DNA from: Promethearchaeota archaeon
GTDB taxonomy: Archaea; Asgardarchaeota; Lokiarchaeia; Sigyniarchaeales; SOKP01
Reading direction: 5' to 3'
DNA: 64,000 bases
Assembly (NCBI GenBank): GCA_016839555.1
Contig: JAEOUA010000006.1
Location: 320,001-384,000, forward strand
Positions within the stretch are counted from its first letter, which is position 1, and each line of letters opens with the position of its first letter. The translations under genes and the position numbers were made by a program. Shown piece after piece: positions 4,795 to 20,464 of the stretch. The notes beneath the pieces were generated by a model. That model did no database searches, was not told where the DNA came from, and was given only the letters and a program-made list of their open reading frames with translations.

Positions 4795-6381
4795 CTATTC
4801 AAAATCTTGGATATATGGTTTACCCATTTCTAAACAAAATTCAGCTTTACTAAGTTCTCTCCCCAAATAATTAAGATGTTGAGAATGATCCGTTAATTGT
4901 AAATCAATTATACACTTACTTATATCTTCTGCATTTGTTCCAATTATAGTTTTAATTAAATCGTGGGAATTAGAATAAAACAGTATATAAATTTTTTTTT
5001 TATAGTGATTGACATAAATTTTAAAATATCCCTTTTTATCAGGCTCATAGGATGGATCTCTTTTATTAATAATGATTGGATTTTCATTTAAATCTATTCT
5101 CGGCATTTTCTGACTGGTTTTTCCTTTCGCTTTAAATATTTGAATGCCCTGGTTGATAGGGGGTGATTTTTTATATTTTGAGACATAATTTAATTTTACA
5201 GCTTCTTTTAATTCTTTCACGCCACCCATTAATTTTGTACTATGCTCTACTGTAAAAAGAATTCCCATATCTAATTCAACAGCTATACTTGCTAATAATC
5301 CATTAATACCTACTGAATCTATATCCATCAATTCAACCACATTTGAAATCCCAAAAAACATCGGTAATTCGAATTTTTTGAATTCGTCTTGCTGAACCTT
5401 TTTGCGATATAAGAAATATGTGGTAAGTGAAGGTACGATTCCGGGTGAAATAGGTGTTTCCAATAAGGGATCGGCGATTAATTTAGTAAAGCCTAAGTTA
5501 AACATTTTTTCAGTGAGAGTAAATAAATTTTGGACACGAGTCTGAGGATCTTCGGGAAAATAACCCTTATTAATATTGGTTGGTAAAATTACAATCGGAA
5601 TATCTTTTGGAATACTAATGAATTCTTTATAATTACCAATATCAAGACTTAGTATCATATCTATTTTTTCCTCTACAGCTGAATGGATTTCTTCAGTATT
5701 CATAGAATCTATGCTTAGAAGTATATTAAAATTGGATTGTAATAATTTAATAATTTCTTTTACTCGACTGGGTTTGGGTTTATTTGCGATGCATCCAATA
5801 TCTATTATATCAGCCCCAGAATCTATATAATGTTGTGCTTTCTTAATAATTGATTTATCAGACTTTTTTGTGCAATTTACTATTTCTGCGATTATTGGAG
5901 GAGGCAAATCCCTTCCAATCATTATATCGCTAACTTTTTTATTGATATAATAATTTGCTTGATCTATATTTTTTTTGGCATTATTAATTTGATCTTGAAC
6001 TATTTTTTGATATTCAGTTTCTCCAGTTAATTTGAGTTGTTTATCTGCTGGAAGTTCGGTGGAGAGTTCAATACTCTCTATATTTTCCAAAATTAATGGA
6101 AGGTCAGAAGCAAATTCCGGGCCTTTTCTTATGGAAATAGAAAATTGTTCTTCAAGATTTTTAGAACTCCATTGTATAAATCCAGGAAGTAATACTAAAT
6201 CATAGGATGAAAGATCTATAGACTTTAAAGCTTGTTTCGCTAATTTTTGAGTTATAAATGCCGAAATAGAAATAGGTACTTTATATACATTAATCTGATG
6301 TCCTTTAATTGAATTTGAAATTTTTTTTAATATAGAATAACTTTGTTGTCCAGTTAAGATCAATATATTAATAGAAATCAC
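4795..6381 (-). CDS. Archaeal dihydropteroate synthase-like protein with C-terminal DUF4346-like domain
   Basis: GADIIDIG, LSIDS, ADPLL, GISNVVELMDIDSVGINGLL; C-terminal DKKGYFKI...HLNYLGRELSKAE. Confidence 0.8.
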   Translation of the reverse strand: MISINILILTGQQSYSILKKISNSIKGHQINVYKVPISISAFITQKLAKQALKSIDLSSYDLVLLPGFIQWSSKNLEEQFSISIRKGPEFASDLPLILENIESIELSTELPADKQLKLTGETEYQKIVQDQINNAKKNIDQANYYINKKVSDIMIGRDLPPPIIAEIVNCTKKSDKSIIKKAQHYIDSGADIIDIGCIANKPKPSRVKEIIKLLQSNFNILLSIDSMNTEEIHSAVEEKIDMILSLDIGNYKEFISIPKDIPIVILPTNINKGYFPEDPQTRVQNLFTLTEKMFNLGFTKLIADPLLETPISPGIVPSLTTYFLYRKKVQQDEFKKFELPMFFGISNVVELMDIDSVGINGLLASIAVELDMGILFTVEHSTKLMGGVKELKEAVKLNYVSKYKKSPPINQGIQIFKAKGKTSQKMPRIDLNENPIIINKRDPSYEPDKKGYFKIYVNHYKKKIYILFYSNSHDLIKTIIGTNAEDISKCIIDLQLTDHSQHLNYLGRELSKAEFCLEMGKPYIQDFE

Positions 6382-6631
6382 TAACCTTTTTTACTTTTTT
6401 TAGATAAGAGATTTAATAATTCATTTTATGTAAGATTACCGTTAAATAAAATCTGATGTTTTTAATATATTCTTCTATTATTATTCAATCTACGATATTG
6501 GTAATTATAATCGATTGATTGCAAATATAATCTCGTATGATAAAAATATGAAAAAATAAATGATAAATTTCTCAAACTTGAACTTGATTATCTAATAACT
6601 AATAAATAAATAAATAAAAAAATTTTAATAT

Positions 6632-8107
6632 TTACATTTGGACTGCTGCTTTTAGCCCTAATCCTTTAGCGACTCTATCTCCCCAAGTTTCATCAGCTTT
6701 ATAGAAATAAGTTAGCATCCTTTCTTGGATAAACGTAGGTACGGTTTTAAGACTATTAACCAGATTTTGTATAAGACGATCTTGTTCATCTGCTGGCATT
6801 AATCTATAGAGATTTCCAGGCTGTATAAAATCAGCATCTACTCTGGGTTGTCCATATCTATCAGCATCTCCAGAAATTTTTAGTGGAGGTTCTTTAAATT
6901 TAGGATCCTCTTTAGGACCTCCGAAGCTATTGGGTTCATACACAGGAGAAGCTCCTGCATTATCGTCAAATCTCATAAAGCCATCACGATGATAGGTATT
7001 TACTTTTGCATTCTTTGGTCTATTTACCGGTAATGACTGATAATTTACTCCTAATCGGTAGCGATGAGCATCTGCATACGAGAAGAGTCTTCCTTGTAGC
7101 ATTTTATCTGGTGAGAACGAAATTCCGGGAACCTTATTAGAAGGATCGAATGCTGCTTGTTCTATTTCTGCAAAATAGTTTTTTGGATTCTTATTTAATT
7201 CCATTATTCCTACTTTTATTAATGGATAATCTCCATGGGGCCAAACCTTAGTTAAATCAAAAGGGTTCCATTCATAAGTTTCTGCTTCTAATTCTGGCAT
7301 TATTTGGACACTAAGTTCCCATTTTGGATAATCTCCACGCTCAATTCTCTCATATAAATCGCGTGTCGCCCAGTCCGGATCAATACCTGCAATTTTATCT
7401 GCTTCTTCTTGCATAAAATTTTTAATGCCTTGTAATGTTTTAAAATGAAATTTGACCCAGAAACGCTCATTATCTGCATTTATAAAACTATAGGTATGGC
7501 TTCCATATCCATTCATGTGGGTAAATCCATAGGGAATGCCTCGGTCCGAGAAAAGAATAGTGACTTGATGTAGGGACTCGGGAACTAATGACCAGAAATC
7601 CCACCACATCGTTTGGGAGCGTAGATTATTTTTAGGCATCCGTTTTTGAGTGTGAATAAAATCACTGAATTTTAAAGGATCTCTGACAAAAAACACAGGT
7701 GTGTTATTTCCTACTAAGTCCCAGTTGCCTTCCTCTGTGTAAAATTTAAGCGCAAAACCTCTCACATCTCTTACTGTATCCGCTGAACCTCTTTCTCCTG
7801 CTACAGTCGAAAATCTAGCTAATACCTCTGTTTCTTTCCCGACTTCTGAGAATATTTTTGCCTTAGTATATTTTGTTATATCATGTGTCACGGTAAACGT
7901 ACCATACGCTCCTGCTCCTTTTGCATGAACAACTCGTTCTGGTATTCTTTCTCTAGCAAATGTCGCTAATTTCTCCATTAAATGTACATCTTGCATGAGA
8001 ATTGGGCCTCTTTCACCAGCAGTTATTGAATTTTGATTATCTTCTATGGGAGCGCCTCCAGCAGTAGTTAGGGTATCTTTACTTTTTTTAGGTTCTTTAT
8101 ATTCCAT
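6632..8107 (-). CDS. katA: Monofunctional heme catalase (small subunit)
   Basis: [15 protein letters not shown] active-site signature; [14 protein letters not shown] proximal heme-ligand motif. Confidence 0.97.
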
Positions 8108-8383
8108 ATATTTCCTCTCTAATTTTAATTATTGGTTCAATGGTGTAAAGGATAACTATGTATTTAAGCAATCTTCTTTTAATTTATTAATTTTAAAAAT
8201 AAAAACAAGATACAAATAAAAATAAATAATTAATCAAATTATGAAAATAAATTATAATTATAACCTTTATAAGCTTTCAGATAATGCTGTTGATTTTTTT
8301 ATATTGTAATAAGGTAGTTTTGAACTATCTTTAATCTTTGTTTGTTTTATACTTAATCTGTTTAAATATCAAAATTTAATCTT

Positions 8384-9490
8384 TTATTTATTGTTCTTAC
8401 GATTTAAATAGTCTTTTTTGAATGGAATGAAGATATCGTCTAAAATTGATCCTGATGCGTGATTTAATTCTAAATTATTAACAATGGGTTTATATTTCCC
8501 TCCTAATAAACCATCAGCTATATAGGCGGCTCCTTGGGCGGCTCTCTTTGCTATTTGACTATAAGTTTTCATTAATCTTACAGGTATAAAATCATTTAAA
8601 GCATCATAGATGTTATGTTGAATATAATTAATGTTTGCACCCCTCCCTGCTAATAATATTTCTTTTTTTTTTTCTTTTTCTGAAAATGAGGAGGAAATAG
8701 AATATACTGCTTTTTGAACGCTTGAAATGTAAGCTTGGAAGGCAATTCGGGTTTGTTCATCCTTTTCTGCCAAGAGTGAGATTTCTTTCAAGCTTAAATC
8801 TGAATACCCTGCAATATAAGCTACACCACCTTTATATATATTTTCCTTCTTGATTTCTTTTATTAAATACGCTAATTCTCCATCTAAACTTCCACAGGCT
8901 CTAAATCCCATTATATTTGATCCCCCAATTCCATCAATGATTTTTCCGTTTTCAATCGCTAATACAGCAGTAAATCCATATCCAATTTCAACCATGATGA
9001 AATTTGTTCTTTCAGGAGGGAGATTATAGGTTTCCATTTGATCTTTTATTCCCACCACAGCGGTACATAATTTATCTGCAGTCCCCATATCGATTTTATT
9101 GATTTTTCGATATCTCGGTACGGTTGAGAGATGTTTTACGCCGGGAACCATGACACCGGGAATATTTTCTTTTTTAATTAATCTTAATATTTCTCCTAAT
9201 CCTAGTAATTCTTCTTTTTCTTTTTTCTGGAATTTTAATAAGGTTAAGAAAATATCTTTTTCGGTAAGTTCAGAACTTTTTCTTAAAGGTAATCCAAATC
9301 CACTAGGAGCAACCATTAAATCAATCTTATGTTTTTTATGTAATGATTTGATAACAGTAATACATTTACGGGGCTCTCGTATTATATCTTTAGTTGGAAT
9401 AGATGTATCTAATATGATCTGATCATCATTTAAACCGAAAAAATCCCAACTTAGGGAGCCAGGATCGATACCTAAGACGGTTTTAGTCAT
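8384..9490 (-). CDS. DUF1464 family protein (ASKHA/butyrate kinase-like)
   Basis: GIDPGS.S.D, APSGFGLP, NKIDMGTADK, GKIIDGIGG, AAQGAAYIADGL.GG. Confidence 0.8.
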   Translation of the reverse strand: MTKTVLGIDPGSLSWDFFGLNDDQIILDTSIPTKDIIREPRKCITVIKSLHKKHKIDLMVAPSGFGLPLRKSSELTEKDIFLTLLKFQKKEKEELLGLGEILRLIKKENIPGVMVPGVKHLSTVPRYRKINKIDMGTADKLCTAVVGIKDQMETYNLPPERTNFIMVEIGYGFTAVLAIENGKIIDGIGGSNIMGFRACGSLDGELAYLIKEIKKENIYKGGVAYIAGYSDLSLKEISLLAEKDEQTRIAFQAYISSVQKAVYSISSSFSEKEKKKEILLAGRGANINYIQHNIYDALNDFIPVRLMKTYSQIAKRAAQGAAYIADGLLGGKYKPIVNNLELNHASGSILDDIFIPFKKDYLNRKNNK

Positions 9491-11701: not shown

Positions 11702-12043
11702 TTATATGAGAGCTTCGATTTTTTCTAAGGTTTTTTCATTAACTTTTATTTCCCTTAAAAAGTGTCTTTTAATTCTTTTAAGGAATCCTCTCCTTTCTTT
11801 TTCTGTTTCATAATTTGTTAATAGTTCTTTAACCCATTTGATGTTATTTTCTACTTCTTCAGGAATTTTTTCACTATCATGTCTGGCGGCATTTTGCGGA
11901 CATATTTTATGGCATGTGCCACATCTAATACATATATCCATATCTATTTGAGCATTTTCATCAACCATAGTAATCGCTCCAGAAGGACATTCTTCAATGC
12001 AAATGCCGCAACCATCACATAAATTTGCATCTATCCAAGGCAT
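11702..12043 (-). CDS. 2[4Fe-4S] ferredoxin-domain protein
   Basis: CDGCGICIEECP and CIRCGTCHKICP motifs plus a helical C-terminal tail. Confidence 0.9.
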   Translation of the reverse strand: MPWIDANLCDGCGICIEECPSGAITMVDENAQIDMDICIRCGTCHKICPQNAARHDSEKIPEEVENNIKWVKELLTNYETEKERRGFLKRIKRHFLREIKVNEKTLEKIEALI

Positions 12044-12287: not shown

Positions 12288-13253
12288 TTATTCTACCCAA
12301 CCTATTCCAACTACACAGCCTTGATAATCAATCATTTTATTTTTAGTAAACCCCGCTTTTACCAAATCACTTTTCAATTCTTCCTCCGTAAAAATAGTAT
12401 CAGAAATAGATTCTTTATAGATTTTTAAAAGTAAATCCGCAGTAACATCGTCAGTAAGAGGAAAGTCTGCTTTTGTTACTACAATAATCATCCCTCCTGG
12501 CTGAAGAATCCTATGGAGTTCCTTTAACACTTCAACCTCATTCATTCTAAAAAAATTGGTATTTTTTTTATAGTCCGGTATCGCAACCATTTCAATGAAA
12601 TCATTAGGCTCTCTAATTGTTTTTTTATATACTTCTGAAATATGAATATCCATCAGTTCTGTTTCAGTATAATTCTCATAGTTTTCTTTCTTAGAGAGAA
12701 TAAAAACTTCATCAGCTAATGTTTTAAATAAACTTATAAGTCTCAAAAAAATATGCTTGGAGAACCATACTGCCATAATATTTTCTAAATGGTCTTTATT
12801 GCTAATTTTTTTTATCCGGTCCGTTAACCCCTCGTCAAACTGTATAACATCTGGAATCACACTGCTATCCATAAAAAATTGTAGCAGATATTTTAATAAA
12901 TAATTGGTTAGTGGTGTGGCCTCGACTGTTTGAACTCTTCTCTTATGATTAAGGTTAAATTTTACTAAACCTCGTTTTTCGAGGTTAGATAAATTATTAT
13001 AAAAACTGGAAGTAGAGAGATCTGAATTACTTTTTTCTTTTTTCTCAGTATATTCAAGATATTTGGCTTCATATTCACTTAAATTTATATCTTTGAATTT
13101 ATTTACGTTTATTTTGTTATTTTGAATTAATTCATTTACAATTACATAAAGAGTGTATCTTACAATTGGCTTTCCATACTCTAACAATAAATTTAGAGTA
13201 ATGATTTCTATAAGTGATAGATCAATAAGATTTCCAATTCGTAACTTTTTCAT
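12288..13253 (-). CDS. Putative transcription regulator: winged-helix domain fused to a degenerate methyltransferase-like domain
   Basis: LSTSSFYNNLSNLEKRGLVKF recognition helix and wing; C-terminal VLKELHRILQPGGMIIV and FTEEELKSDLVKAGF as in class I MTases, but no GxGxG motif. Confidence 0.6.
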   Translation of the reverse strand: MKKLRIGNLIDLSLIEIITLNLLLEYGKPIVRYTLYVIVNELIQNNKINVNKFKDINLSEYEAKYLEYTEKKEKSNSDLSTSSFYNNLSNLEKRGLVKFNLNHKRRVQTVEATPLTNYLLKYLLQFFMDSSVIPDVIQFDEGLTDRIKKISNKDHLENIMAVWFSKHIFLRLISLFKTLADEVFILSKKENYENYTETELMDIHISEVYKKTIREPNDFIEMVAIPDYKKNTNFFRMNEVEVLKELHRILQPGGMIIVVTKADFPLTDDVTADLLLKIYKESISDTIFTEEELKSDLVKAGFTKNKMIDYQGCVVGIGWVE

Positions 13254-13294
13254 AATTCGTTCTTATTTTTAAATAATTAAAATTTATTAATAAG

Positions 13295-13312
13295 ATTTTC
13301 AAAATTGAAAAT
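13295..13312. promoter_or_regulatory. Candidate operator palindrome ATTTTCA-N4-TGAAAAT in the regulator/GRE divergent promoter
   Basis: Perfect 7-bp inverted repeat; a second TGAAAAT half-site at 13329-13335 lies next to a TATA-like TTTAATATA; the AT-rich context lowers significance. Confidence 0.35.
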
Positions 13313-13435
13313 TATTTATACCAAAAAATGAAAATACTTTAATATAAAGTTATAAATTATAATAATTAGAATTAAAAATTTTAAAAATAATCTTTCTATA
13401 AAAAATTGAGAAAAATTAGAGAGGTATATCAATAA

Positions 13436-15937
13436 ATGAGTAAAACTTCAGATTCCTCTGAATTTAAGAAACAGCATCCTTTTGAGGTGGCAAAACCTCA
13501 CGATATGCTTCCACGATCTAAATGGCTTCGTGAATATTATTTTAAAGGAGCTGAAAGAGAATGGAACAATGAATTCTCTCCTTTCACTACTGGAACAGAA
13601 TGGGACATATTGTTTAATGAATTAAATTTTTACATCGTCCCAGAGGTGTATATGTACATTGGAAACAAAGGAAAGGGGGTATTTGAAACTTCCTTCAGAT
13701 CAAGCGCAATCCCCATTGATTTACCGGAAAATTTTTGGGATTTATCCATTCCTGAACGAAGAGTTCTTTTTTTTGAAAAAGCAATGGTGGATTATATCCC
13801 TTACGAAATTATCTCTGAAAACGATTTAATCGCGGGTGGACGTTATAACACTCAATTAAGTCATTGCTTAGATAATAAAGAAACTAAGAAATTTTGGAAA
13901 AAATTAATTAAAACGCGTGAAAAATTCTTCAAATTCCATAAAAGTGGATTCGGTAACACAGGCGCTACCTCAGGGCATATTATTCCCGACTATGAAACGG
14001 TTATAAATAAAGGTTTTAAATTTTTGCATGATAAAGCGAAGAGGAGCTATGAAAATCTCAGTGGAAAAGAGAAAAACGGAGCAGAAGGGGCAGAATTGCG
14101 AGCAATGATAAGAGCCACTGAAATCCCCAGAAAATTAGCAAAGAGATATGCAGAAGAATGTCGAAGATTAAAGGAAGATGCCACTCCAGAAAGAGCAGAA
14201 GAATTAGAACAGATGGCAAAAAGTTTAGAAAGAGTACCATGGGAACCAGCAGAAACCTTCTGGCAGGGTGTTCAAGCAATATGGTTAACGCATATGTTAA
14301 TTATGGCAGAAGAATCATACCCGGGAGCGGGCACATCTTTTGGCAGAACAGACCAACACCTCTGGCATTTATATAAGAAAGATGTAATTGAAGAGAAAAC
14401 CATCACCAAAGACTTCGCAAAAGAAATATTGGGAAGCTTTTGGTTTCATTGCAATACTGCATATGATGCGATGATACGAGTAGGGAAACAAGGGATCACA
14501 TCAGGCTTCGGACAATTAATGACACTTTCAGGCTGTGGTCCAAATGGGGAAGATCTGACGAATGAACTAACGTATACCATTTTAGAAGTCATAGATGAAT
14601 GGTCTCCGATCCTCGAACCGAAACCAAATATCCGCCTACATCGAAATTCTCCGGATAAATTACTTAATATCATTGTAGACATGGTGTCACGCGCTCAAGG
14701 AGCACCATTTCTGTTAAATTTCGATGAAAGAAGTATTGCAGGAATGGTCTTGGAAGGAATTCCCAAAGAGCAGGCATGGGATTATGCATGTGTGGGCTGT
14801 TTAGAAAATACAATGCAAGGAAATGATCGCTCTGGAACCGTGAATTGTAATCCAAACTTAGCAAAAAGTATAGAATTAACCTTATGGAACGGCAAAAATA
14901 TGCCGGGAAATGTAGTTAAAGACTGGACAAAGGAAGGAGAGCAATTTGGACCAAAAACAGGAGATTCAGAAAATTTTGAAACATGGGAAGAGTTTTTTGC
15001 CGCATGGAAAAAGCAAATCGAATTTATCATTAGATATCTTGTGGAAGTTAATAATGAAACAGAAGAACTACGTGGAAATTATCTTCCAACTCCTTATTTA
15101 TCCACTTTTGTAAGAGGATGCATTGAACAAGGCTTAGATGTGAGAAATGGGGGAGCAGAATTAAGTTTTATCACCGTGGAAGGGGTTGGCTATGCCACTA
15201 CCGTTGATTCTTTATTAGCAATCAAAAAACTGGTGTATGAGGATAAAAAATATACAATTTCGGAAATAAAGGATGCATTAGTTAAAGATTTTCAAGGAAA
15301 AGAAAATTCGATCATTCAAACCACTTTAATTCATAAAGCTCCAAAATACGGAAATGATAATGATGAAGCGGATGAATTGGCTCGAATAGTAATGAAAACA
15401 TGGGCTGATGAAACATGGAAATATAAAACTCCCACCAACTTTCAATATCGACCTGGAATGCTTTCGTGGAATTATTGGGCGGGTGCTGATGCAATGCTTA
15501 CACCAGCAACTCCCAATGGTCGGAATGCCGCGACCTATTTGTCGAATGCAATTTGTCCTACAGATGGCGTCGATATAAAAGGCCCCACAGCGGTGACTAA
15601 TTCCGTAGGAATGGCCCTCGGAGGCAAGACTGAGCATGGTGAATATATCAATTACTTACCAAATGGCGCAAGTCACACCATCACCTTTAATCCAAGCATA
15701 CTACGAGTCCCAGAAAATAAGGAGAAATTTAAATCATATCTTCGTGGATATATTGAAAATGGAGGAACTTCTTTGCAAATTAACATGATTGATGCTGATG
15801 TGTTGCGCGATGCTCAAAAGCACCCGGAGAACTATGAAAACCTGCTGGTCAGAATTACTGGCTATAATGCGTATTTTACGGCGATTGGGAAAGAGCTTCA
15901 AAACGAGATAATAAAGCGAGAATCTCATCAAATATAA
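13436..15937 (+). CDS. Glycyl radical enzyme (PFL superfamily, non-PFL type), substrate unknown
   Basis: 833 aa; Cys loop YACVGCLE (Cys455), Gly loop LLVRITGYNAYF (Gly809), SFGRTDQHL, APKYGNDNDEAD. Confidence 0.93.
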   Translation: MSKTSDSSEFKKQHPFEVAKPHDMLPRSKWLREYYFKGAEREWNNEFSPFTTGTEWDILFNELNFYIVPEVYMYIGNKGKGVFETSFRSSAIPIDLPENFWDLSIPERRVLFFEKAMVDYIPYEIISENDLIAGGRYNTQLSHCLDNKETKKFWKKLIKTREKFFKFHKSGFGNTGATSGHIIPDYETVINKGFKFLHDKAKRSYENLSGKEKNGAEGAELRAMIRATEIPRKLAKRYAEECRRLKEDATPERAEELEQMAKSLERVPWEPAETFWQGVQAIWLTHMLIMAEESYPGAGTSFGRTDQHLWHLYKKDVIEEKTITKDFAKEILGSFWFHCNTAYDAMIRVGKQGITSGFGQLMTLSGCGPNGEDLTNELTYTILEVIDEWSPILEPKPNIRLHRNSPDKLLNIIVDMVSRAQGAPFLLNFDERSIAGMVLEGIPKEQAWDYACVGCLENTMQGNDRSGTVNCNPNLAKSIELTLWNGKNMPGNVVKDWTKEGEQFGPKTGDSENFETWEEFFAAWKKQIEFIIRYLVEVNNETEELRGNYLPTPYLSTFVRGCIEQGLDVRNGGAELSFITVEGVGYATTVDSLLAIKKLVYEDKKYTISEIKDALVKDFQGKENSIIQTTLIHKAPKYGNDNDEADELARIVMKTWADETWKYKTPTNFQYRPGMLSWNYWAGADAMLTPATPNGRNAATYLSNAICPTDGVDIKGPTAVTNSVGMALGGKTEHGEYINYLPNGASHTITFNPSILRVPENKEKFKSYLRGYIENGGTSLQINMIDADVLRDAQKHPENYENLLVRITGYNAYFTAIGKELQNEIIKRESHQI

Positions 15938-15965
15938 ATAATAGTAAGGAGGTAATTATAGTATC

Positions 15966-16970
15966 ATGGCAAGTGCATCTAAAGTATTGATTTTCGAAAT
16001 ACAGAAAATGTCTACAGAAGACGGACCTGGAATTCGAACAACAGTCTTTATGAAGCATTGTCCATTAAAATGTGTATGGTGTCATAATCCAGAATCGATC
16101 CCGAAAAAGCCACTATTAGAATGGTTAAAACACAAGTGCATAGGATGTAAAACATGTGTAGAAACATGCAAACAGCATGCGCTCTCTCTTGATAAGGAAG
16201 GACTTCACATAGATAGAGAGAAATGTATTAGCTGTGGAGAGTGTGTAGAAGCATGTCCAAGCACAGCACTTCATATGTTTGGCACTTGGTGGGACTTAGA
16301 AGACTTATTTCACGAAGTACATAAAGATAGGGTATATTATATAAAATCTGGCGGAGGAATTACGGTCTCTGGTGGAGAGCCCACCCTTCAGCCCGAATTT
16401 ATAGAACATTTCTTTAAAAAATGTAAGGAAAATGGGCTTTCTACAGCCTTAGATACCTGTGGATATGCATCAAAAGAGACTTTTAAGAAAATATTACCCT
16501 ATGTCGATTTAATATTGTTAGATATTAAGGAAATAGATCCAGAAAAGCATAAGGAATATACAGGAGTTTCCAATGAAAAAATTCTTGAAAATGCCAAATG
16601 GCTTGCCAGCTATGTAAAAGATCATAACAAAAAAATCTGGATAAGAACACCTCTAATTCCAAACTATACTGCGACGAAAGAAAATATTAAGGGAATTGGA
16701 ACTTTTATCGTCAACGAGTTAGAAAATATTCCCGAGAGGTGGGATCTTCTGGCGTTTAATAACTTATGCGCCGCCAAATATGATCGCCTTGATATCGACT
16801 GGCCGCTAAACGGTTTACCATTGATGAGAGAGGAAACAATTGAAAAATTATATAAGCTGGCGAAAGATACTGGCGTTGCCAATGTGCAATGGTCTGGATT
16901 AACTAAAAAAAAGGAAAGTGAAGAAGAGATATCTTCTTATGATGATACAGTAAAATTACCTTCTTGTTAA
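15966..16970 (+). CDS. Glycyl-radical enzyme activating protein (radical SAM with 2[4Fe-4S] insert)
   Basis: DGPGIRTTVF, CPLKCVWCHNPES, CIGCKTCVETC, CISCGECVEAC, SGGEP; SD-like AAGGAGGT at 15946-15953. Confidence 0.95.
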   Translation: MASASKVLIFEIQKMSTEDGPGIRTTVFMKHCPLKCVWCHNPESIPKKPLLEWLKHKCIGCKTCVETCKQHALSLDKEGLHIDREKCISCGECVEACPSTALHMFGTWWDLEDLFHEVHKDRVYYIKSGGGITVSGGEPTLQPEFIEHFFKKCKENGLSTALDTCGYASKETFKKILPYVDLILLDIKEIDPEKHKEYTGVSNEKILENAKWLASYVKDHNKKIWIRTPLIPNYTATKENIKGIGTFIVNELENIPERWDLLAFNNLCAAKYDRLDIDWPLNGLPLMREETIEKLYKLAKDTGVANVQWSGLTKKKESEEEISSYDDTVKLPSC

Positions 16971-16999
16971 TAAAAATTAAATAAAAAAGATGACTGTGT

Positions 17000-17905
17000 A
17001 TGGCAAAAAATAAAACGAAAAATAAGACAAAAGGACCTCAATGGTCTAAGACATTATCTCCGGAAGCAATTGAGTTTACCCAACCCGCAATAATGTTAAA
17101 AATGGTATCGACAATTGATGATCGTGGGTGGCCTCATATCACCATCATCACAAGTAATCGTGCGTCTGCTAAAGATAAGATTGTATGGGGTGCCTTCACA
17201 GATGGGACGAGTAAAGAAAACGTAAAAAAAAATCCCAAGCAAGGGATTCTTTATATGACTGCTGAAATGCCCTTTAAATTCCTTCAAGCGAAAGCGGATT
17301 TTGATTATACAACGAAAGAAGGAGATGATTTAGAATTCTTCAACAACACCGAATTAATGCGCTATTTCACTTATGTCAGGGTTCATACTGCATATTATAA
17401 TAATCTGGTAGCTGCAACCGGAATAAGAGACCTTCCACTGTTGGGAATCGTGTCTGGGATTGTAAAAGATTTAATCGGGAAAGGAGGGTTAAAAACAGGT
17501 TTAGATGAAGAGCGGCTGAATCCAATAGGATATAAGCTCTATACTGCTCCTATTGCAGTACGAGCAATCGCATATTTGGATCCGTCCGATGGCTATCCTA
17601 TAATAATTCCTTGTATTCCACTACAGGCCGCTGATCATAATAGACTCGTTTTTCCCTTGGCATCAAACAGCGATGATTTGCTCAAAATTCCAGAAGGAGC
17701 AAAAGTAGCGGTTCATTGTATGAATTTTGATTTTGCTAATCTAGTTGTGAAGGGAACTTATACAGGATTTAAAAAATCACGATTATTCAAATTTGGTGTA
17801 ATCGAAATCGAGGAAGTCTATAATTCTTGCCCTCCTGTGTTTGGTGTAATATATCCTGAAGAGAGGAGATATGAAAGACCAAAGGTAGTTGATTTTCATC
17901 TTTAA
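17000..17905 (+). CDS. Tandem pyridoxamine-5'-phosphate-oxidase-like (flavin/F420-binding split barrel) protein
   Basis: Module 1 MVSTIDDRGWPHIT...SKENVKKNPK and module 2 AIAYLDPSDGYPIIIP...KVAV...VVKG. Confidence 0.7.
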   Translation: MAKNKTKNKTKGPQWSKTLSPEAIEFTQPAIMLKMVSTIDDRGWPHITIITSNRASAKDKIVWGAFTDGTSKENVKKNPKQGILYMTAEMPFKFLQAKADFDYTTKEGDDLEFFNNTELMRYFTYVRVHTAYYNNLVAATGIRDLPLLGIVSGIVKDLIGKGGLKTGLDEERLNPIGYKLYTAPIAVRAIAYLDPSDGYPIIIPCIPLQAADHNRLVFPLASNSDDLLKIPEGAKVAVHCMNFDFANLVVKGTYTGFKKSRLFKFGVIEIEEVYNSCPPVFGVIYPEERRYERPKVVDFHL

Positions 17906-17911
17906 AAATAA

Positions 17912-17945
17912 ATTTTATTCTTTTTTTTATATTTATTTTTTTAAA
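17912..17945 (+). terminator. Oligo-T tract, likely archaeal terminator of the GRE operon
   Basis: TTTTATTCTTTTTTTTTATATTTATTTTTTT immediately after the stop at 17905. Confidence 0.45.
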
Positions 17946-18311: not shown

Positions 18312-19052
18312 GTGAACTTGTTTCGAAAACAATTTGGAATGGAATATAATCATTTATACGAAATTTTAGCCACTTCAATTAGAGATAATCCTTTAAAAAA
18401 AAAAATTATTCCAAATACAGCAGCTATGGGTATAAGGTTAGTAGAAAATAATATTATCAAAATCGCTCCCTATCCTACTACCCAAACTTATAAAAATTTA
18501 AAAGAGAATGGAGTCATCATATTAAATCTGGTAGATAATGTATATTTATTTGCATTGGCTGCTTTAAAAGAACCCGATTCACCGATAGGATTAAAAAAAT
18601 TTCCTAAAGAAAAATATCATTACATAAAGGTTCCGAATAAAGAAAATTTAGCTAAAAATATTCCAAGAAATACTGTTGACAATTTAAATGGTATTCCATA
18701 TATTAAAAGCGCTAATGGGATATTAATTTGTAAAGTTATTGATGAAAATGACAAAATAAAGAAAAATAAATTAGGGGAGATCAAAATCACAGAATTCCAA
18801 TTAAATTGTATCTTTCATAAAAAATTTAAGGAGAGTGTTAAGCTTTTTAATAGAGCTGATAATCTAGCCCTTGAGAGTATTATTTTAGCAACACGATTAA
18901 AGATAGCATATGAAAAACAAGATCAAGAACTATGCTCGGTAATTTATAATCAAATTTTAAATTATAGAAAAGATATAGCTCGATTTTCGAAAAATAAAAA
19001 CGCTAATGAAACTATGAAATTAATAGATAATTATATTAGAAGATATTCATAA
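18312..19052 (+). CDS. DUF447 family protein (true start may be ATG 18339)
   Basis: NTAAMGI, TQTYKNLKENG..ILNLVD, FNRADNLALESIILATRL; converges on mptD/mptG. Confidence 0.75.
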   Translation: MNLFRKQFGMEYNHLYEILATSIRDNPLKKKIIPNTAAMGIRLVENNIIKIAPYPTTQTYKNLKENGVIILNLVDNVYLFALAALKEPDSPIGLKKFPKEKYHYIKVPNKENLAKNIPRNTVDNLNGIPYIKSANGILICKVIDENDKIKKNKLGEIKITEFQLNCIFHKKFKESVKLFNRADNLALESIILATRLKIAYEKQDQELCSVIYNQILNYRKDIARFSKNKNANETMKLIDNYIRRYS

Positions 19053-19058
19053 AATTTG

Positions 19059-19454
19059 TTATTTTTCAATAATTTTCTCGATAAACATTAAAGGGTATTC
19101 AAGATCTTTTACCCAATCTATTCTTGCTGTTATTTCTACCTGTTCAAACTGTACAATCACTTTTGCTCGGATAATTTTTCCCGTTATTTCATCGTAATCA
19201 AATTCATTGGACTTTTCTCCTTTAATATTATCTCGATCTAAATTTACTTCTACTTTTTTTATAAATGGTTGGCATTTCAGGGATGCTTCTATTCCCTTTT
19301 CAATAGAGGAAATTACTTTTTGATCCCGAGAAATAGGGATTCCACATAAAATGTGATAAAGAGCTCCGAGTTTAATACCTGCCTCAAAACATGCCCTTTC
19401 TCTTTCAGTTATATCAGAGGCAAAATAAATTTTATCTACAGTTTTTTCTTTCAT
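19059..19454 (-). CDS. mptD: Archaeal dihydroneopterin aldolase
   Basis: ERACFEAGIKLGALYH...G.PIS...IE.S...QPF...LEYPLM. Confidence 0.88.
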   Translation of the reverse strand: MKEKTVDKIYFASDITERERACFEAGIKLGALYHILCGIPISRDQKVISSIEKGIEASLKCQPFIKKVEVNLDRDNIKGEKSNEFDYDEITGKIIRAKVIVQFEQVEITARIDWVKDLEYPLMFIEKIIEK

Positions 19455-19459
19455 TTTTC

Positions 19460-20464
19460 TCAGTCAAGAATTTCAAATTCTGCTCCTGTGTTGTTAGGCT
19501 TACATAAATAGAAATGCCCGCCAACATGCTTAATTTGAGTTTTAACGGCTCTTAATAATTTTTTAGCTTCTGAGTGGGACTCTGTGATTCCAATCACGCT
19601 GGGACCGAAAGAACTCATCCCATATGCCTTTACACCATATTTTTCCATAAAATTTAAAAGATTCTTAACCACATTATGTTGTAATTGAATTTCCCTTTTT
19701 TTAAACCCGATTGATTGGATTTTTTTTAATCCTTCTCCAAAACAAGTTAAATTCTTTTTAAGAATCCCAGGAATTATTTTCATCAAAATTTGATGGGAAA
19801 CTTCATTAACCTCTTCTCTCGGAATGGGTGTATGAGATTGAAAAATAGATATTTCTTCATCTCCATATGCTCCTTTTTTAACATTTGGGATGGCAAGTAC
19901 AAAACGCCAATGTTCCGGAATATCATATCTGAGAATTGTTAATGCCGGATCGGCAGAATTAGCGGCAGATGAGGGAAGGAATGTTTCTTTTTCCTCCCCC
20001 TTGCCAAAATCATGGCCTCCATCTAAAATGAACCCTCCCATTTCAAATCCTCGCCAACCAATACCAGACGTACCTCCTCTTTCTACTATCTTTGTTAAAG
20101 TTTTATGAGAGACATTTAAATTTTTCAATTTCGCGATTGATGTTGCTATAGCCAGGCTTAATTGTGTTTTAGAACCAAGACCAACATGGGAAGGATAATA
20201 TTGTTTTAAATTGAAATGAAAATTTTTATTATCTATTTTATATGCTTTAAAAACCTTTGAAGCTTTTTCATTGATTACTTCAATTGATTCGCGGTAATAG
20301 TGGTTTGCCTCAATTTTAAATTCTTTCGCTGCATTAGTAGCTTCAAATACCACATTCGGGCGGTCAAGCATGAGACCTATTCCCCCATCGACTCTTCCGG
20401 TGTATCCATTCTCATCGATTAAAGATAAATGAATTCTGCATGGAGTTGTGACTCTGATTTTCAT
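19460..20464 (-). CDS. mptG: Beta-ribofuranosylaminobenzene 5'-phosphate (RFAP) synthase, GHMP family
   Basis: TPCRIHLSLID, GRVDGGIG, HVGLGSKTQ, RGGTSGIG, GGFILDGGH, GMSSFGP. Confidence 0.92.
   Translation of the reverse strand: MKIRVTTPCRIHLSLIDENGYTGRVDGGIGLMLDRPNVVFEATNAAKEFKIEANHYYRESIEVINEKASKVFKAYKIDNKNFHFNLKQYYPSHVGLGSKTQLSLAIATSIAKLKNLNVSHKTLTKIVERGGTSGIGWRGFEMGGFILDGGHDFGKGEEKETFLPSSAANSADPALTILRYDIPEHWRFVLAIPNVKKGAYGDEEISIFQSHTPIPREEVNEVSHQILMKIIPGILKKNLTCFGEGLKKIQSIGFKKREIQLQHNVVKNLLNFMEKYGVKAYGMSSFGPSVIGITESHSEAKKLLRAVKTQIKHVGGHFYLCKPNNTGAEFEILD

Follow-up and report, generated by a model that had tools for sequence, protein, structure and literature searches.

A candidate three-component glycyl radical enzyme system with a tandem split-barrel protein in Asgard archaea and bacteria

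Layout of the locus

The window analysed here is a stretch of 64,000 nucleotides from a Promethearchaeota archaeon (contig JAEOUA010000006.1). It contains three co-oriented genes, which code for an oxygen-sensitive glycyl radical enzyme (GRE), a radical-SAM activating enzyme (activase) and a split-barrel protein (SB), as well as a divergently oriented gene upstream. The features of the locus are:

12288-13253, minus strand: putative lineage-specific regulator, divergent (321 aa; weak Pfam and NCBIfam matches)
13254-13435, no strand: divergent intergenic region, AT-rich, with TATA-like tracts (182 bp; read directly)
13436-15937, plus strand: glycyl radical enzyme, GRE (833 aa; Pfam, NCBIfam, translation, clade motifs and tree)
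15966-16970, plus strand: radical-SAM GRE activating enzyme, activase (334 aa; TIGR02494, Radical_SAM, Fer4)
17000-17905, plus strand: tandem PNPOx-like split-barrel protein, SB (301 aa; AF2, Foldseek, HHalign and synteny)
17906-17945, plus strand: oligo-T tracts T8 and T7, archaeal-terminator-like (read directly)

According to the ORF coordinates, the gaps measure 28 bp between GRE and activase and 29 bp between activase and SB. Together with the 182-bp divergent region, the genes lie exactly as an earlier, sequence-only reading of this DNA had described them. The SD-like site and the oligo-T tract mentioned there can also be read directly: GGAGGT is located 12 nt upstream of the activase ATG, and T8 and T7 tracts are found at about 17917-17940, 3' of the SB stop codon. 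These tracts are the probable 3' end of the predicted operon. Just 5' of the GRE ATG, inside the divergent region, lies AGAGAGGT. The sequencing runs that match the operon consist of marine-sediment, marsh and soil DNA, with no RNA run listed among them.

The glycyl radical enzyme belongs to a separate clade

In Pfam, the GRE matches the pyruvate formate-lyase (PFL)-like domain (PF02901, E=3.9e-127) and the Gly_radical domain (PF01228, E=5.9e-21). Its catalytic Cys455 is part of a single-Cys CXE loop (VGCLEN), and the radical Gly809 is found in the sequence RITGYNAYF. The glycine of RITGY, a loop of the RVxG[FWY] type, and the cysteine of VGCLEN are invariant in 70 members of the clade, and C455-L-E457, a CXE loop of the GRE 1,2-eliminase/isomerase class, is invariant throughout it. 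With Cys455, Glu457 and Gly809 as its key residues, the protein is a bona fide non-PFL GRE of the CXE-loop type, which is predicted to form a glycyl radical.

The tree places the clade as monophyletic on a long stem. Its motifs comprise ES-YPG-x-G-x-S-x-GR-x-DQ, with a 2-residue insertion, as well as VGCLENT..G(N/K)D(R/V)SGTV, G(M/Y)LSWNY and R(I/V)TGY(N/S)A(Y/F)F. These clade-specific motifs occur in all three subclades and are missing from the four paralogues in the window's genome. Besides the catalytic cysteine, further cysteines are conserved in HCNT and GC motifs.

The proposal that this GRE lies outside the characterised isofunctional families is borne out by profile scores, which fall below the cut-offs of all NCBIfam equivalogs and of the PFL2-3 subfamily model. 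The window GRE scores 374.8 bits for HypD (cut-off 1100), 345.4 for CutC (1050), 384.6 for HpsG (1000), 356.8 for HpfG (1000), 267.3 for IAD (1100) and 193.6 for HPAD (1150). The PFL2/glycerol-dehydratase subfamily model TIGR01774 gives 426.5 bits (cut-off 678.2). Solved GREs are each ~30% identical to the window GRE and reach at most 314 bits, the best PDB match being glycerol dehydratase 1r8w (313.7 bits), whereas scores within the clade range from 650 to 1750 bits. The comparison set consists of the NCBIfam models and the solved structures, among which PhdB is not represented.

The fold and the radical relay (glycine loop, one cysteine, glutamate at +2) are shared with glycerol dehydratase 1r8w and the other CXE-loop GREs. 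The 1,2-eliminases/isomerases compared were PD, HypD, HpyG, HpzG, CutC, IslA/IseG, HpsG/HpfG, HplG, YbiW and PflD. In contrast to these enzymes, from which it is roughly equidistant, the window GRE has the clade-specific insertion and motifs, and its clade has an N-terminal region (about 175 aa) that is both conserved and divergent. None of the systems compared includes a flavoprotein-like gene as third member.

Assignment as a B12-independent glycerol/propanediol dehydratase was rejected on the basis of an HMMER alignment to 1r8w. While the equivalent of His164 is kept (H181) and the activase type with a ferredoxin-like insert is shared, Ser282 and Asp447 of glycerol dehydratase are replaced by Gly299 and Val469. 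A sulfonate lyase was rejected on the HpsG and HpfG scores; the Arg/Gln anchor positions, located by offset only, appear to be Ala/His in the window GRE. The Archaeoglobus fulgidus PFL2 (2f3o) is also an archaeal PFL-like GRE, the function of which is debated, but its match to the window GRE reaches only 283.5 bits, which places it in a different clade. We know of no SB partner for A. fulgidus PFL2.

Database names such as 'pyruvate formate lyase family protein' and 'formate C-acetyltransferase', together with the listing of PFL as present in Asgard papers, would suggest a standard pyruvate formate-lyase with SB as an unrelated neighbour. This is hardly credible. PFL is defined by a Cys-Cys motif, and its absence from the VGCLEN loop refutes this identity; the motif is found in none of the five GREs of the window's genome. 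In addition, the window GRE scores 89.6 bits for TIGR01255 (cut-off 994.2) and 289.6 bits for NF007437 (cut-off 1109), E. coli PFL reaches only 55 bits, and the linkage with SB is kept across two domains of life.

The activase and the split-barrel protein

The activase scores 331.6 bits for TIGR02494 in NCBIfam (cut-off 174.35) and has Radical_SAM and Fer4 matches in Pfam. It possesses a CX3CX2C motif and, at residues about 55-104, a ferredoxin-like insert for two clusters; the cysteines are invariant in the activase alignment. Ferredoxin-like clusters of activases need an external electron donor; in the case of E. coli PFL-AE, this donor is flavodoxin, a small FMN protein (GRE review, June 2026).

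SB adopts a split-barrel fold in its AF2 model (pLDDT 89.3), for which Foldseek returns 3in6, 2htd, FMN-bp and Rv1155, among others, at a probability of 1.0. Each match spans one half of SB, with a TM to target of 0.63-0.73 and an identity of 12-19%. The closest structures belong to small FMN-binding proteins (3in6 and D. vulgaris FMN-bp), to HupZ and to F420/FMN FDORs. The two halves are homologous to each other (HHalign probability 93.5%, E=2.2e-7), and the earlier description of SB as a two-module PNPOx-like protein holds. The match of the window SB to PNPOx_N (PF01243) is weak (E=2.8e-4; 21.7 bits, below the gathering score of 28.1); among the 22 SB family members, 18 match at E<=0.01, the best of them at 2e-7. 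A single-module homologue of 136-161 aa, present in one Asgard family, exceeds the threshold with 42.7 bits. Its existence fits a history in which a homodimer became the fused pseudodimer of SB. A search of the ESM Atlas returned 'hypothetical protein' clusters only.

The N-module contains an FT-x3-SK-x5-NP motif (F66, T67, S71, K72, N78, P79), which we take to represent the phosphate-binding residues of PNPOx, and the invariant His46. In the C-module, the FT..SK..NP motif is lost. Just 11 columns of the SB alignment are invariant, with H46, S71, R121, Y274 and N275 as the polar ones; so few polar residues would suffice for a cofactor site but seem few for a specific substrate pocket. Neither an NAD(P)H-binding domain nor a conserved cysteine was found in SB. 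The modelled fold and the motif suggest that SB probably binds a flavin. As for F420, which had been put forward as an alternative cofactor, the window SB scores 18.2 bits for the F420-dependent FDOR model TIGR03618 (cut-off 79). F420 is unlikely to be the general cofactor because the gene is also present in Clostridia and Izemoplasmatales, which to our knowledge do not produce F420.

Each half of SB thus has the fold of Swol_0183 (3in6), the Desulfovibrio vulgaris FMN-binding protein and PF01243, with the FT..SK..NP motif in the N-module. Unlike these small FMN-binding proteins, SB consists of two fused modules, of which the second is degenerate, and is in a fixed genomic partnership with a GRE activase.

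Linkage and distribution of the three genes

In the 301 Asgard genomes sampled, the clade GRE and SB occur together in 110, SB alone in 9, the GRE alone in 9 and neither in 173. The clade GRE is present in 119 of these genomes (about 40%), including that of the cultured MK-D1. The window's genome encodes five GREs, three activases and one SB. The order GRE-activase-SB is found in MK-D1 too, and a second Asgard subclade, with a GRE that is 44-47% identical, keeps it as well. The earlier reading had placed the system in an Asgard-type setting, but it is not specific to this group, as a bacterial sister clade exists in rumen and sediment Clostridia, Desulfobacterota, Chloroflexota and Izemoplasmatales. 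Between the two domains, the GRE is 53% identical and SB about 30%, SB diverging much faster.

Synteny of SB with GRE homologues elsewhere, on which the earlier reading had made its idea conditional, was found in both domains. In GRE-anchored loci, the three genes are together in 26 Asgard loci and in 25 of the 27 bacterial loci, the remaining two of which end before SB would be reached. Loci anchored on distant SB homologues have the GRE adjacent in 12 of 12 cases, with the activase in between in 11. The linkage is far beyond chance, its order is kept across two domains of life, and in Asgard archaea and several bacterial phyla the three genes are inherited together.

SB lies directly 3' of the activase in all 41 GRE-anchored loci that contain both genes. 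The gap between the two has a median of 36 nt; in several bacteria, the genes overlap by 4 nt. Where the operon is split, it parts between the GRE and the activase-SB pair, as seven examples show, and in two loci no clade GRE is located within 8.8 kb of this pair. Among related genomes, such breaks between GRE and activase are not independent events. In two genomes (L029/G704 and L089/G240), SB stays beside the GRE and the clade activase is found on another contig.

Regulators and flanking genes

The divergent gene has a match to a TrmB-type wHTH domain (Pfam, E=0.009, below cut-off), and its relatives are named PadR-family by JGI. At its C-terminus, only residues 240-307 match the methyltransferase model NF045667 (E=0.0024). 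A helix-helix-hairpin pattern is seen in the AF2 model, which was built from 5 sequences and is unreliable (pLDDT 42.4), and comparison of the profile with the PDB found nothing meaningful. Orthologues are present in only 4 of 53 Asgard loci, those closest to the window's, and the family comprises 34 clusters, all Asgard. The putative wHTH/MTase-fold regulator, which the sequence-only reading had counted as part of the system, is therefore outside the conserved module.

Other lineages have TetR (MK-D1-type) or GntR/FCD regulators with the module, and the bacterial form is a compact cassette, GntR/FCD-GRE-activase-SB, with no further conserved enzyme. A rubrerythrin gene directly precedes the GRE in 13 Asgard loci and in none of the bacterial ones. 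Ene-reductase-like genes lie beside the module in some Asgard lineages (Oxidored_FMN+Pyr_redox_2 in one of them, f21, and NMO-like elsewhere). Asgard flanks otherwise contain cofactor-biosynthesis or beta-oxidation-like genes, which are conserved within lineages only. Bacterial flanks are unrelated (ZnuA, alanine symporter, TamB, P-type ATPase, surface protein); some in Clostridia and Chloroflexi contain DAO- or amine-oxidase-like flavoproteins, an FNR-like 2Fe-2S reductase and an MFS_2 transporter. Naming a substrate from the neighbours was rejected, since no flanking gene is conserved across the clade.

Relation to known GRE systems

A literature search combining glycyl radical with Asgard, Prometheoarchaeum, split barrel or FMN-binding did not find a description of the triad. 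The GRE review of June 2026 lists no flavoprotein partner and no archaeal PFL-like GRE of known function, in agreement with the earlier statement that no known GRE has a dedicated split-barrel partner. The sole mention of a PNPOx-like gene within a GRE operon that we found is LssP of the limonenylsuccinate synthase operon, which is expressed and has an unknown function (PMC12583861). LssP is one of about 17 genes in this X-succinate-synthase operon and is likened to SB here by its description.

HPAD and the X-succinate synthases likewise have small subunits, additional polypeptides that serve a single GRE and whose genes lie in its operon. However, these are short Fe-S or structural proteins with conserved cysteines, whereas SB has a flavoprotein fold, no conserved cysteine and a position after the activase. 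The triad matches no studied GRE system, and a third, linked gene of this kind has not been described for any GRE.

Proposed mechanism and alternative roles of SB

We propose that the three genes constitute a real, uncharacterised three-component GRE system, at a probability of roughly 85%. By analogy with the family mechanism, the activase, with its [4Fe-4S] cluster reduced, would cleave SAM and take a hydrogen from Gly809. The radical would then move to Cys455, which would abstract a hydrogen from the substrate. Glu457 may deprotonate or hydrogen-bond a substrate hydroxyl, as in GRE 1,2-eliminases/isomerases. Such a role would make a small hydroxylated organic compound the probable substrate, and the bacterial GntR/FCD regulators suggest that it carries a carboxylate.

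SB may be a pseudo-dimeric carrier of a flavin, most likely FMN, with one intact cofactor site in the N-module. It could act as a dedicated redox partner at activation that reduces the ferredoxin-like clusters of the activase, comparable to flavodoxin and E. coli PFL-AE. The radical-SAM activase of the GRE depends on a one-electron donor in both systems. The E. coli donor, however, is a flavodoxin-fold housekeeping protein encoded elsewhere, whereas SB is a split barrel encoded right after the activase of one GRE clade. We lean towards a role of SB at the activase, as opposed to one in converting the product, because SB almost always directly follows the activase, but we hold this tentatively and at less than even odds. 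The gene order somewhat favours this role over product processing. Against it stand the other GRE-activase pairs of the same genome, which have no SB, so that a dedicated donor is not generally required, and the two genomes in which SB is beside the GRE and the activase elsewhere. Moreover, the donors known for activases, flavodoxin and ferredoxin, do not share the split-barrel fold, and split-barrel FMN proteins usually have potentials less negative than a radical-SAM cluster requires. A complex prediction of activase and SB scored 0.00, which gives no verdict for or against.

Alternatively, SB may be a second enzyme that reduces, oxidises or isomerises a reactive product (enal, enone, imine or enamine) of a GRE-catalysed 1,2-elimination or isomerisation. 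This had been the first suggestion of the sequence-only reading, and electron supply to the activase its second. Many PNPOx-like proteins are small-molecule oxidoreductases, and in the compact bacterial cassette, which has no other conserved enzyme, SB could finish the conversion to a central metabolite. The two genomes that retain SB with the GRE, and the ene-reductase-like neighbours, which hint at an unsaturated product, also speak for this role. We nevertheless consider it unlikely, as SB lacks an NAD(P)H-binding module, its anaerobic hosts have no O2 for oxidase turnover, and it diverges faster than the GRE with few polar invariants. Split operons usually keep SB with the activase rather than the GRE, and no characterised GRE pathway has such an enzyme.

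SB could also serve the GRE itself, either by supplying reducing equivalents for a net-reductive reaction or as a radical-quenching 'deactivase' under oxygen. Class III ribonucleotide reductase obtains reducing equivalents from formate or thioredoxin. Strict co-inheritance with one GRE clade only, the rubrerythrin gene 5' of the GRE and the extra conserved cysteines of the clade (HCNT and GC motifs) would be compatible with this idea, which is improbable and wholly speculative. A CXE loop typically marks redox-neutral eliminases/isomerases, and the rubrerythrin adjacency is lineage-restricted and absent from bacteria. Less probable again is the reading in which SB has lost its cofactor and assists the GRE as a chaperone or non-redox accessory subunit, similar in role to the small subunits of HPAD and benzylsuccinate synthase. 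The C-module without FT..SK..NP, the sub-threshold Pfam score of the window SB and HupZ-like relatives that do not bind flavin point in this direction; yet the N-module motif and the invariant His, Ser, Lys and Arg are kept from Asgard archaea to Clostridia. The GRE small subunits known so far, moreover, are Fe-S proteins or short peptides that are encoded beside the GRE and not 3' of the activase.

Returning to the three-component system proposed here, the chance that this GRE clade depends mechanistically on a dedicated flavoprotein falls only just short of even. SB would then be either an FMN module for electron entry into the activase or radical maintenance, or part of a flavin-coupled step of the radical reaction. 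This leads to a concrete question of enzymology, namely whether a flavoprotein feeds or controls a glycyl-radical activase. GREs form a small group of enzymes for hard anaerobic chemistry, and with every new clade assignment a new reaction has come to light. If our proposal is true, the triad would represent a new GRE architecture of three components that acts on a new substrate. Genes of the clade are usually mislabelled as PFL in genome papers and Asgard metabolic models. With the most widespread GRE of Asgard archaea counted as 'PFL', reconstructions of formate metabolism and fermentation in the archaea most closely related to eukaryotes would then have to be revised.

Operon organisation

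Re-reading the open reading frames reproduced exactly the four gene positions proposed by the sequence-only reading:

12288-13253, (-) strand: divergent putative regulator, 321-aa ORF
13436-15937, (+) strand: glycyl radical enzyme (GRE), 833 aa, PFL-like and Gly_radical domains
15966-16970, (+) strand: radical-SAM GRE activating enzyme (activase), 334 aa, TIGR02494 match above cut-off
17000-17905, (+) strand: tandem PNPOx-like split-barrel protein (SB), 301 aa, Pfam PNPOx_N match only sub-threshold

Gaps of 28 and 29 bp separate the genes of the GRE-activase-SB triad, and the spacer to the divergent gene measures 182 bp. The sequence GGAGGT lies 12 nt upstream of the activase start and AGAGAGGT upstream of the GRE start, while oligo-T runs (T8 and T7) follow the SB stop codon. 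The activase has a radical-SAM core and a ferredoxin-like insert with two clusters. Just past the divergent gene, at 11702-12043 (-), lies a 113-aa 2x[4Fe-4S] ferredoxin, which could serve as a local electron source.

The GRE lies outside the characterised families

The Cys loop of the GRE (VGCLEN) contains a single Cys, Cys455, with a Glu two positions on (CXE), and the Gly loop reads RITGYNAYF. PFL requires a Cys-Cys pair; a PFL identity was therefore rejected. The GRE scores far under the cut-off of every NCBIfam equivalog (bits/cut-off: HpsG 385/1000, HypD 375/1100, HpfG 357/1000, CutC 345/1050, IAD 267/1100, HPAD 194/1150, PFL 90/994) and does not reach that of the PFL2-3 subfamily model (426 against 678 bits). 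Compared with all solved GREs, a set that took in the 2022-2026 additions HpyG (8id1), HpzG (8iof), HplG (7vua), YbiW and PflD and left out PhdB, it is closest to glycerol dehydratase (1r8w; 314 bits, ~30% identity). The remaining characterised eliminases and isomerases, those additions included, score 230-300 bits, against 650-1750 bits within its own clade. The earlier proposal that this GRE falls outside the characterised isofunctional families is thus borne out. In one pairwise HMMER alignment, His164 of glycerol dehydratase is retained as H181, but Ser282 and Asp447 are replaced by Gly299 and Val469, which points to the absence of the diol-binding site. Four motifs are diagnostic of the clade, and none occurs in the four GRE paralogues of the same genome.

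A June 2026 review cataloguing all characterised GREs mentions no flavoprotein partner and states that every PFL-like GRE with a known function is bacterial (PMC13450708). A triad with a tandem split barrel is described neither there nor in the other papers found by literature search; the closest mention concerns LssP, a PNPOx-like gene left unexplained within a 17-gene limonenylsuccinate synthase operon. The triad shares its activase pairing with CXE-type GREs and would work much as they do, yet it fits no characterised family tested, and the tandem split barrel is its own. What is new is the GRE clade together with an obligatory third component.

Linkage and distribution

A GRE-anchored scan of one genome per species gave 80 loci. 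By tblastn with the four window proteins, the order GRE-activase-SB is found in close relatives of the window, in the cultured Asgard archaeon MK-D1 (L044) and in 25 of 27 bacterial loci, the sequence ending before SB in the other two. The bacterial carriers comprise Clostridia, Oscillospiraceae, Syntrophomonadaceae, Desulfobacteraceae, other Deltaproteobacteria, Chloroflexia and Izemoplasmatales, with identities to the window proteins of ~53% (GRE), ~45% (activase) and ~30% (SB). Searching 1.8 billion representative proteins with an SB profile returned only 320 clusters at E<=1e-10. Among the most divergent SB matches, sampled at 12 loci, a clade GRE (44-47% identical) adjoins SB in all 12, with the activase between them in 11. 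The synteny of SB with GRE homologues, on which its proposed partnership hinged, therefore holds well beyond the window.

SB and the clade GRE were each detected in 119 of 301 Asgard genomes (both in 110, SB alone in 9, GRE alone in 9, neither in 173), counts in which related genomes are non-independent and some misses reflect incomplete MAGs or unscored candidates. The window's genome encodes five GREs, three activases and a single SB. SB occurs in 2 of 399 Clostridia genomes sampled. Asgard archaea commonly carry the module; in bacteria its occurrence is sporadic.

In a FastTree phylogeny of the GREs, rooted on the paralogues, a divergent Asgard subclade branches outside a pair formed by a Loki-type subclade, including the window and MK-D1, and a bacterial subclade. 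This topology suggests transfer between domains, in one direction or the other. On one contig labelled 'Candidatus Nanopelagicaceae bacterium' (L014, DATKTW010000103.1), an Asgard-type GRE with 75% identity sits in the Loki-type context; the public MAG was probably misbinned or mislabelled.

Fold and possible role of SB

The two-module architecture first read from the sequence is upheld by structure prediction. AF2, given an alignment of 22 sequences, yields a confident model (pLDDT 89.3, pTM 0.87), and in Foldseek either half matches small FMN-, F420- or heme-binding split barrels (3in6, HupZ, 2htd, D. vulgaris FMN-bp, Rv1155). The N- and C-terminal halves align in HHalign (probability 93.5%, E=2.2e-7), so SB is an internal duplication. 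PNPOx_N is matched by 18 of 22 family members. The family lacks an NAD(P)H domain and a conserved Cys; invariant polar residues are few and chiefly in the N-module (H46, S71 and R121, with K72 near-invariant). The protein contains an FT..SK..NP motif, which we take to be the PNPOx FMN-phosphate site. A single-module version exists in one Asgard family, f21, where one split barrel of 136-161 aa (L099:4424-4909, L100:5205-5615; PNPOx_N E=8.6e-11) follows GRE-activase. Here, an enoate-reductase-like Oxidored_FMN+Pyr_redox_2 gene lies immediately upstream of the GRE.

In the GRE family, the reduced activase cleaves SAM and generates a radical on the Gly, a Cys thiyl radical takes a hydrogen atom from the substrate, and the CXE glutamate touches a substrate hydroxyl (PMC13450708). 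By analogy, SAM cleavage by the reduced activase would place the radical on Gly809, from where it would pass to Cys455, and the resulting thiyl would abstract the substrate hydrogen while the CXE glutamate (Glu457) contacts the substrate's hydroxyl. The reaction is thus probably of the eliminase or isomerase type, with a small hydroxylated compound as substrate.

SB may be a cofactor-carrying electron-transfer protein tied to the activation step rather than an enzyme possessing a substrate pocket of its own, a tentative reading to which we assign a probability of roughly 0.4. It is based on the missing NAD(P)H domain and Cys, the few polar invariants, the FT..SK..NP motif, the single-module version and gene order. 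Wherever a GRE-anchored locus carries both genes (41 of 41), SB comes immediately 3' of the activase (median gap 36 nt, with 4-nt overlaps in several bacteria). Where the operon is broken, the break nearly always splits the GRE from the activase-SB pair, inserts of at least five kinds being seen, and in two genomes the pair lies >8.8 kb from any clade GRE. However, two other genomes keep GRE and SB joined with the activase on another contig, the other activases of the window's genome manage without SB, and we know of no split-barrel donor to a GRE activase.

The main rival, that SB catalyses a further step by converting a reactive product of the GRE, draws slight support from the ene-reductase-like neighbours, which are lineage-restricted, and we consider it unlikely. 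That SB acts on the GRE itself, as a reductant or radical-quencher, seems improbable, as does an accessory subunit devoid of cofactor.

Regulators and neighbouring genes

The divergent gene had been counted as a member of the system. This was not sustained: the orthologues detected by tblastn are confined to the four closest loci, and its family of 34 clusters is exclusively Asgard. Its wHTH/MTase-fold signal consists of sub-threshold matches and an unreliable model. Upstream of the triad, the MK-D1 group has a TetR-family regulator, 18 of 27 bacterial loci a GntR/FCD gene and 13 Asgard loci a rubrerythrin. Ligand-sensing repressors have been recruited repeatedly, which fits an inducible catabolic module. 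The usual ligands of FCD-type regulators are carboxylates.

The triad is flanked (4795-9490 and 18312-20464) by an apparent tetrahydromethanopterin-type cofactor cluster, with genes for pterin-binding/DUF4346 (528 aa), DUF1464 (368 aa), DUF447 (18312-19052), archaeal dihydroneopterin aldolase (19059-19454) and a GHMP-kinase fold (19460-20464); related loci add two radical-SAM genes resembling CofH/MqnC. The arrangement recurs in about 11-17 Asgard loci and is absent from bacteria, which argues for lineage synteny, not functional linkage.

Loki-type loci (L004-L011, L014, L017-L019, L030) show a second context, in which a 75%-identical GRE copy neighbours Orc1/Cdc6, XerC/D-like integrase, thioredoxin-reductase-like, NMO-like, thiolase and 3-hydroxyacyl-CoA dehydrogenase genes, and the activase-SB pair lies kilobases away or elsewhere. 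The triad is followed by sulfatase, NMO-like and H+-pyrophosphatase genes in some Asgard loci (L025:6841-8394, L036, L050); L010, L014 and L034 carry a molybdopterin oxidoreductase and Fe-S subunit between GRE and activase. Bacterial flavoprotein and transporter neighbours were noted in L054, L056, L058, L059, L063, L072, L076 and L077: in some Clostridia the triad is followed by flavoprotein genes of DAO-like, amine-oxidase-like and FNR-like/2Fe-2S type, and in Chloroflexia an MFS_2 transporter and an amine-oxidase-like gene lie upstream. These neighbours, unconserved across the clade, possibly hint at an amine- or imino-acid-type substrate.

The four GRE paralogues in the window's genome (contigs C6:268350-270302, C7:233757-235658, C10:456070-457950 and C1:225533-227446) are 30-35% identical to the window GRE, and only two have an adjacent activase. 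Their Cys loops (VGCLE, TGCVD, VGCVE, TGCVE) are all single-Cys, none having the PFL Cys-Cys pair. 'PFL' labels in Asgard metabolic reconstructions may be unsafe in general.
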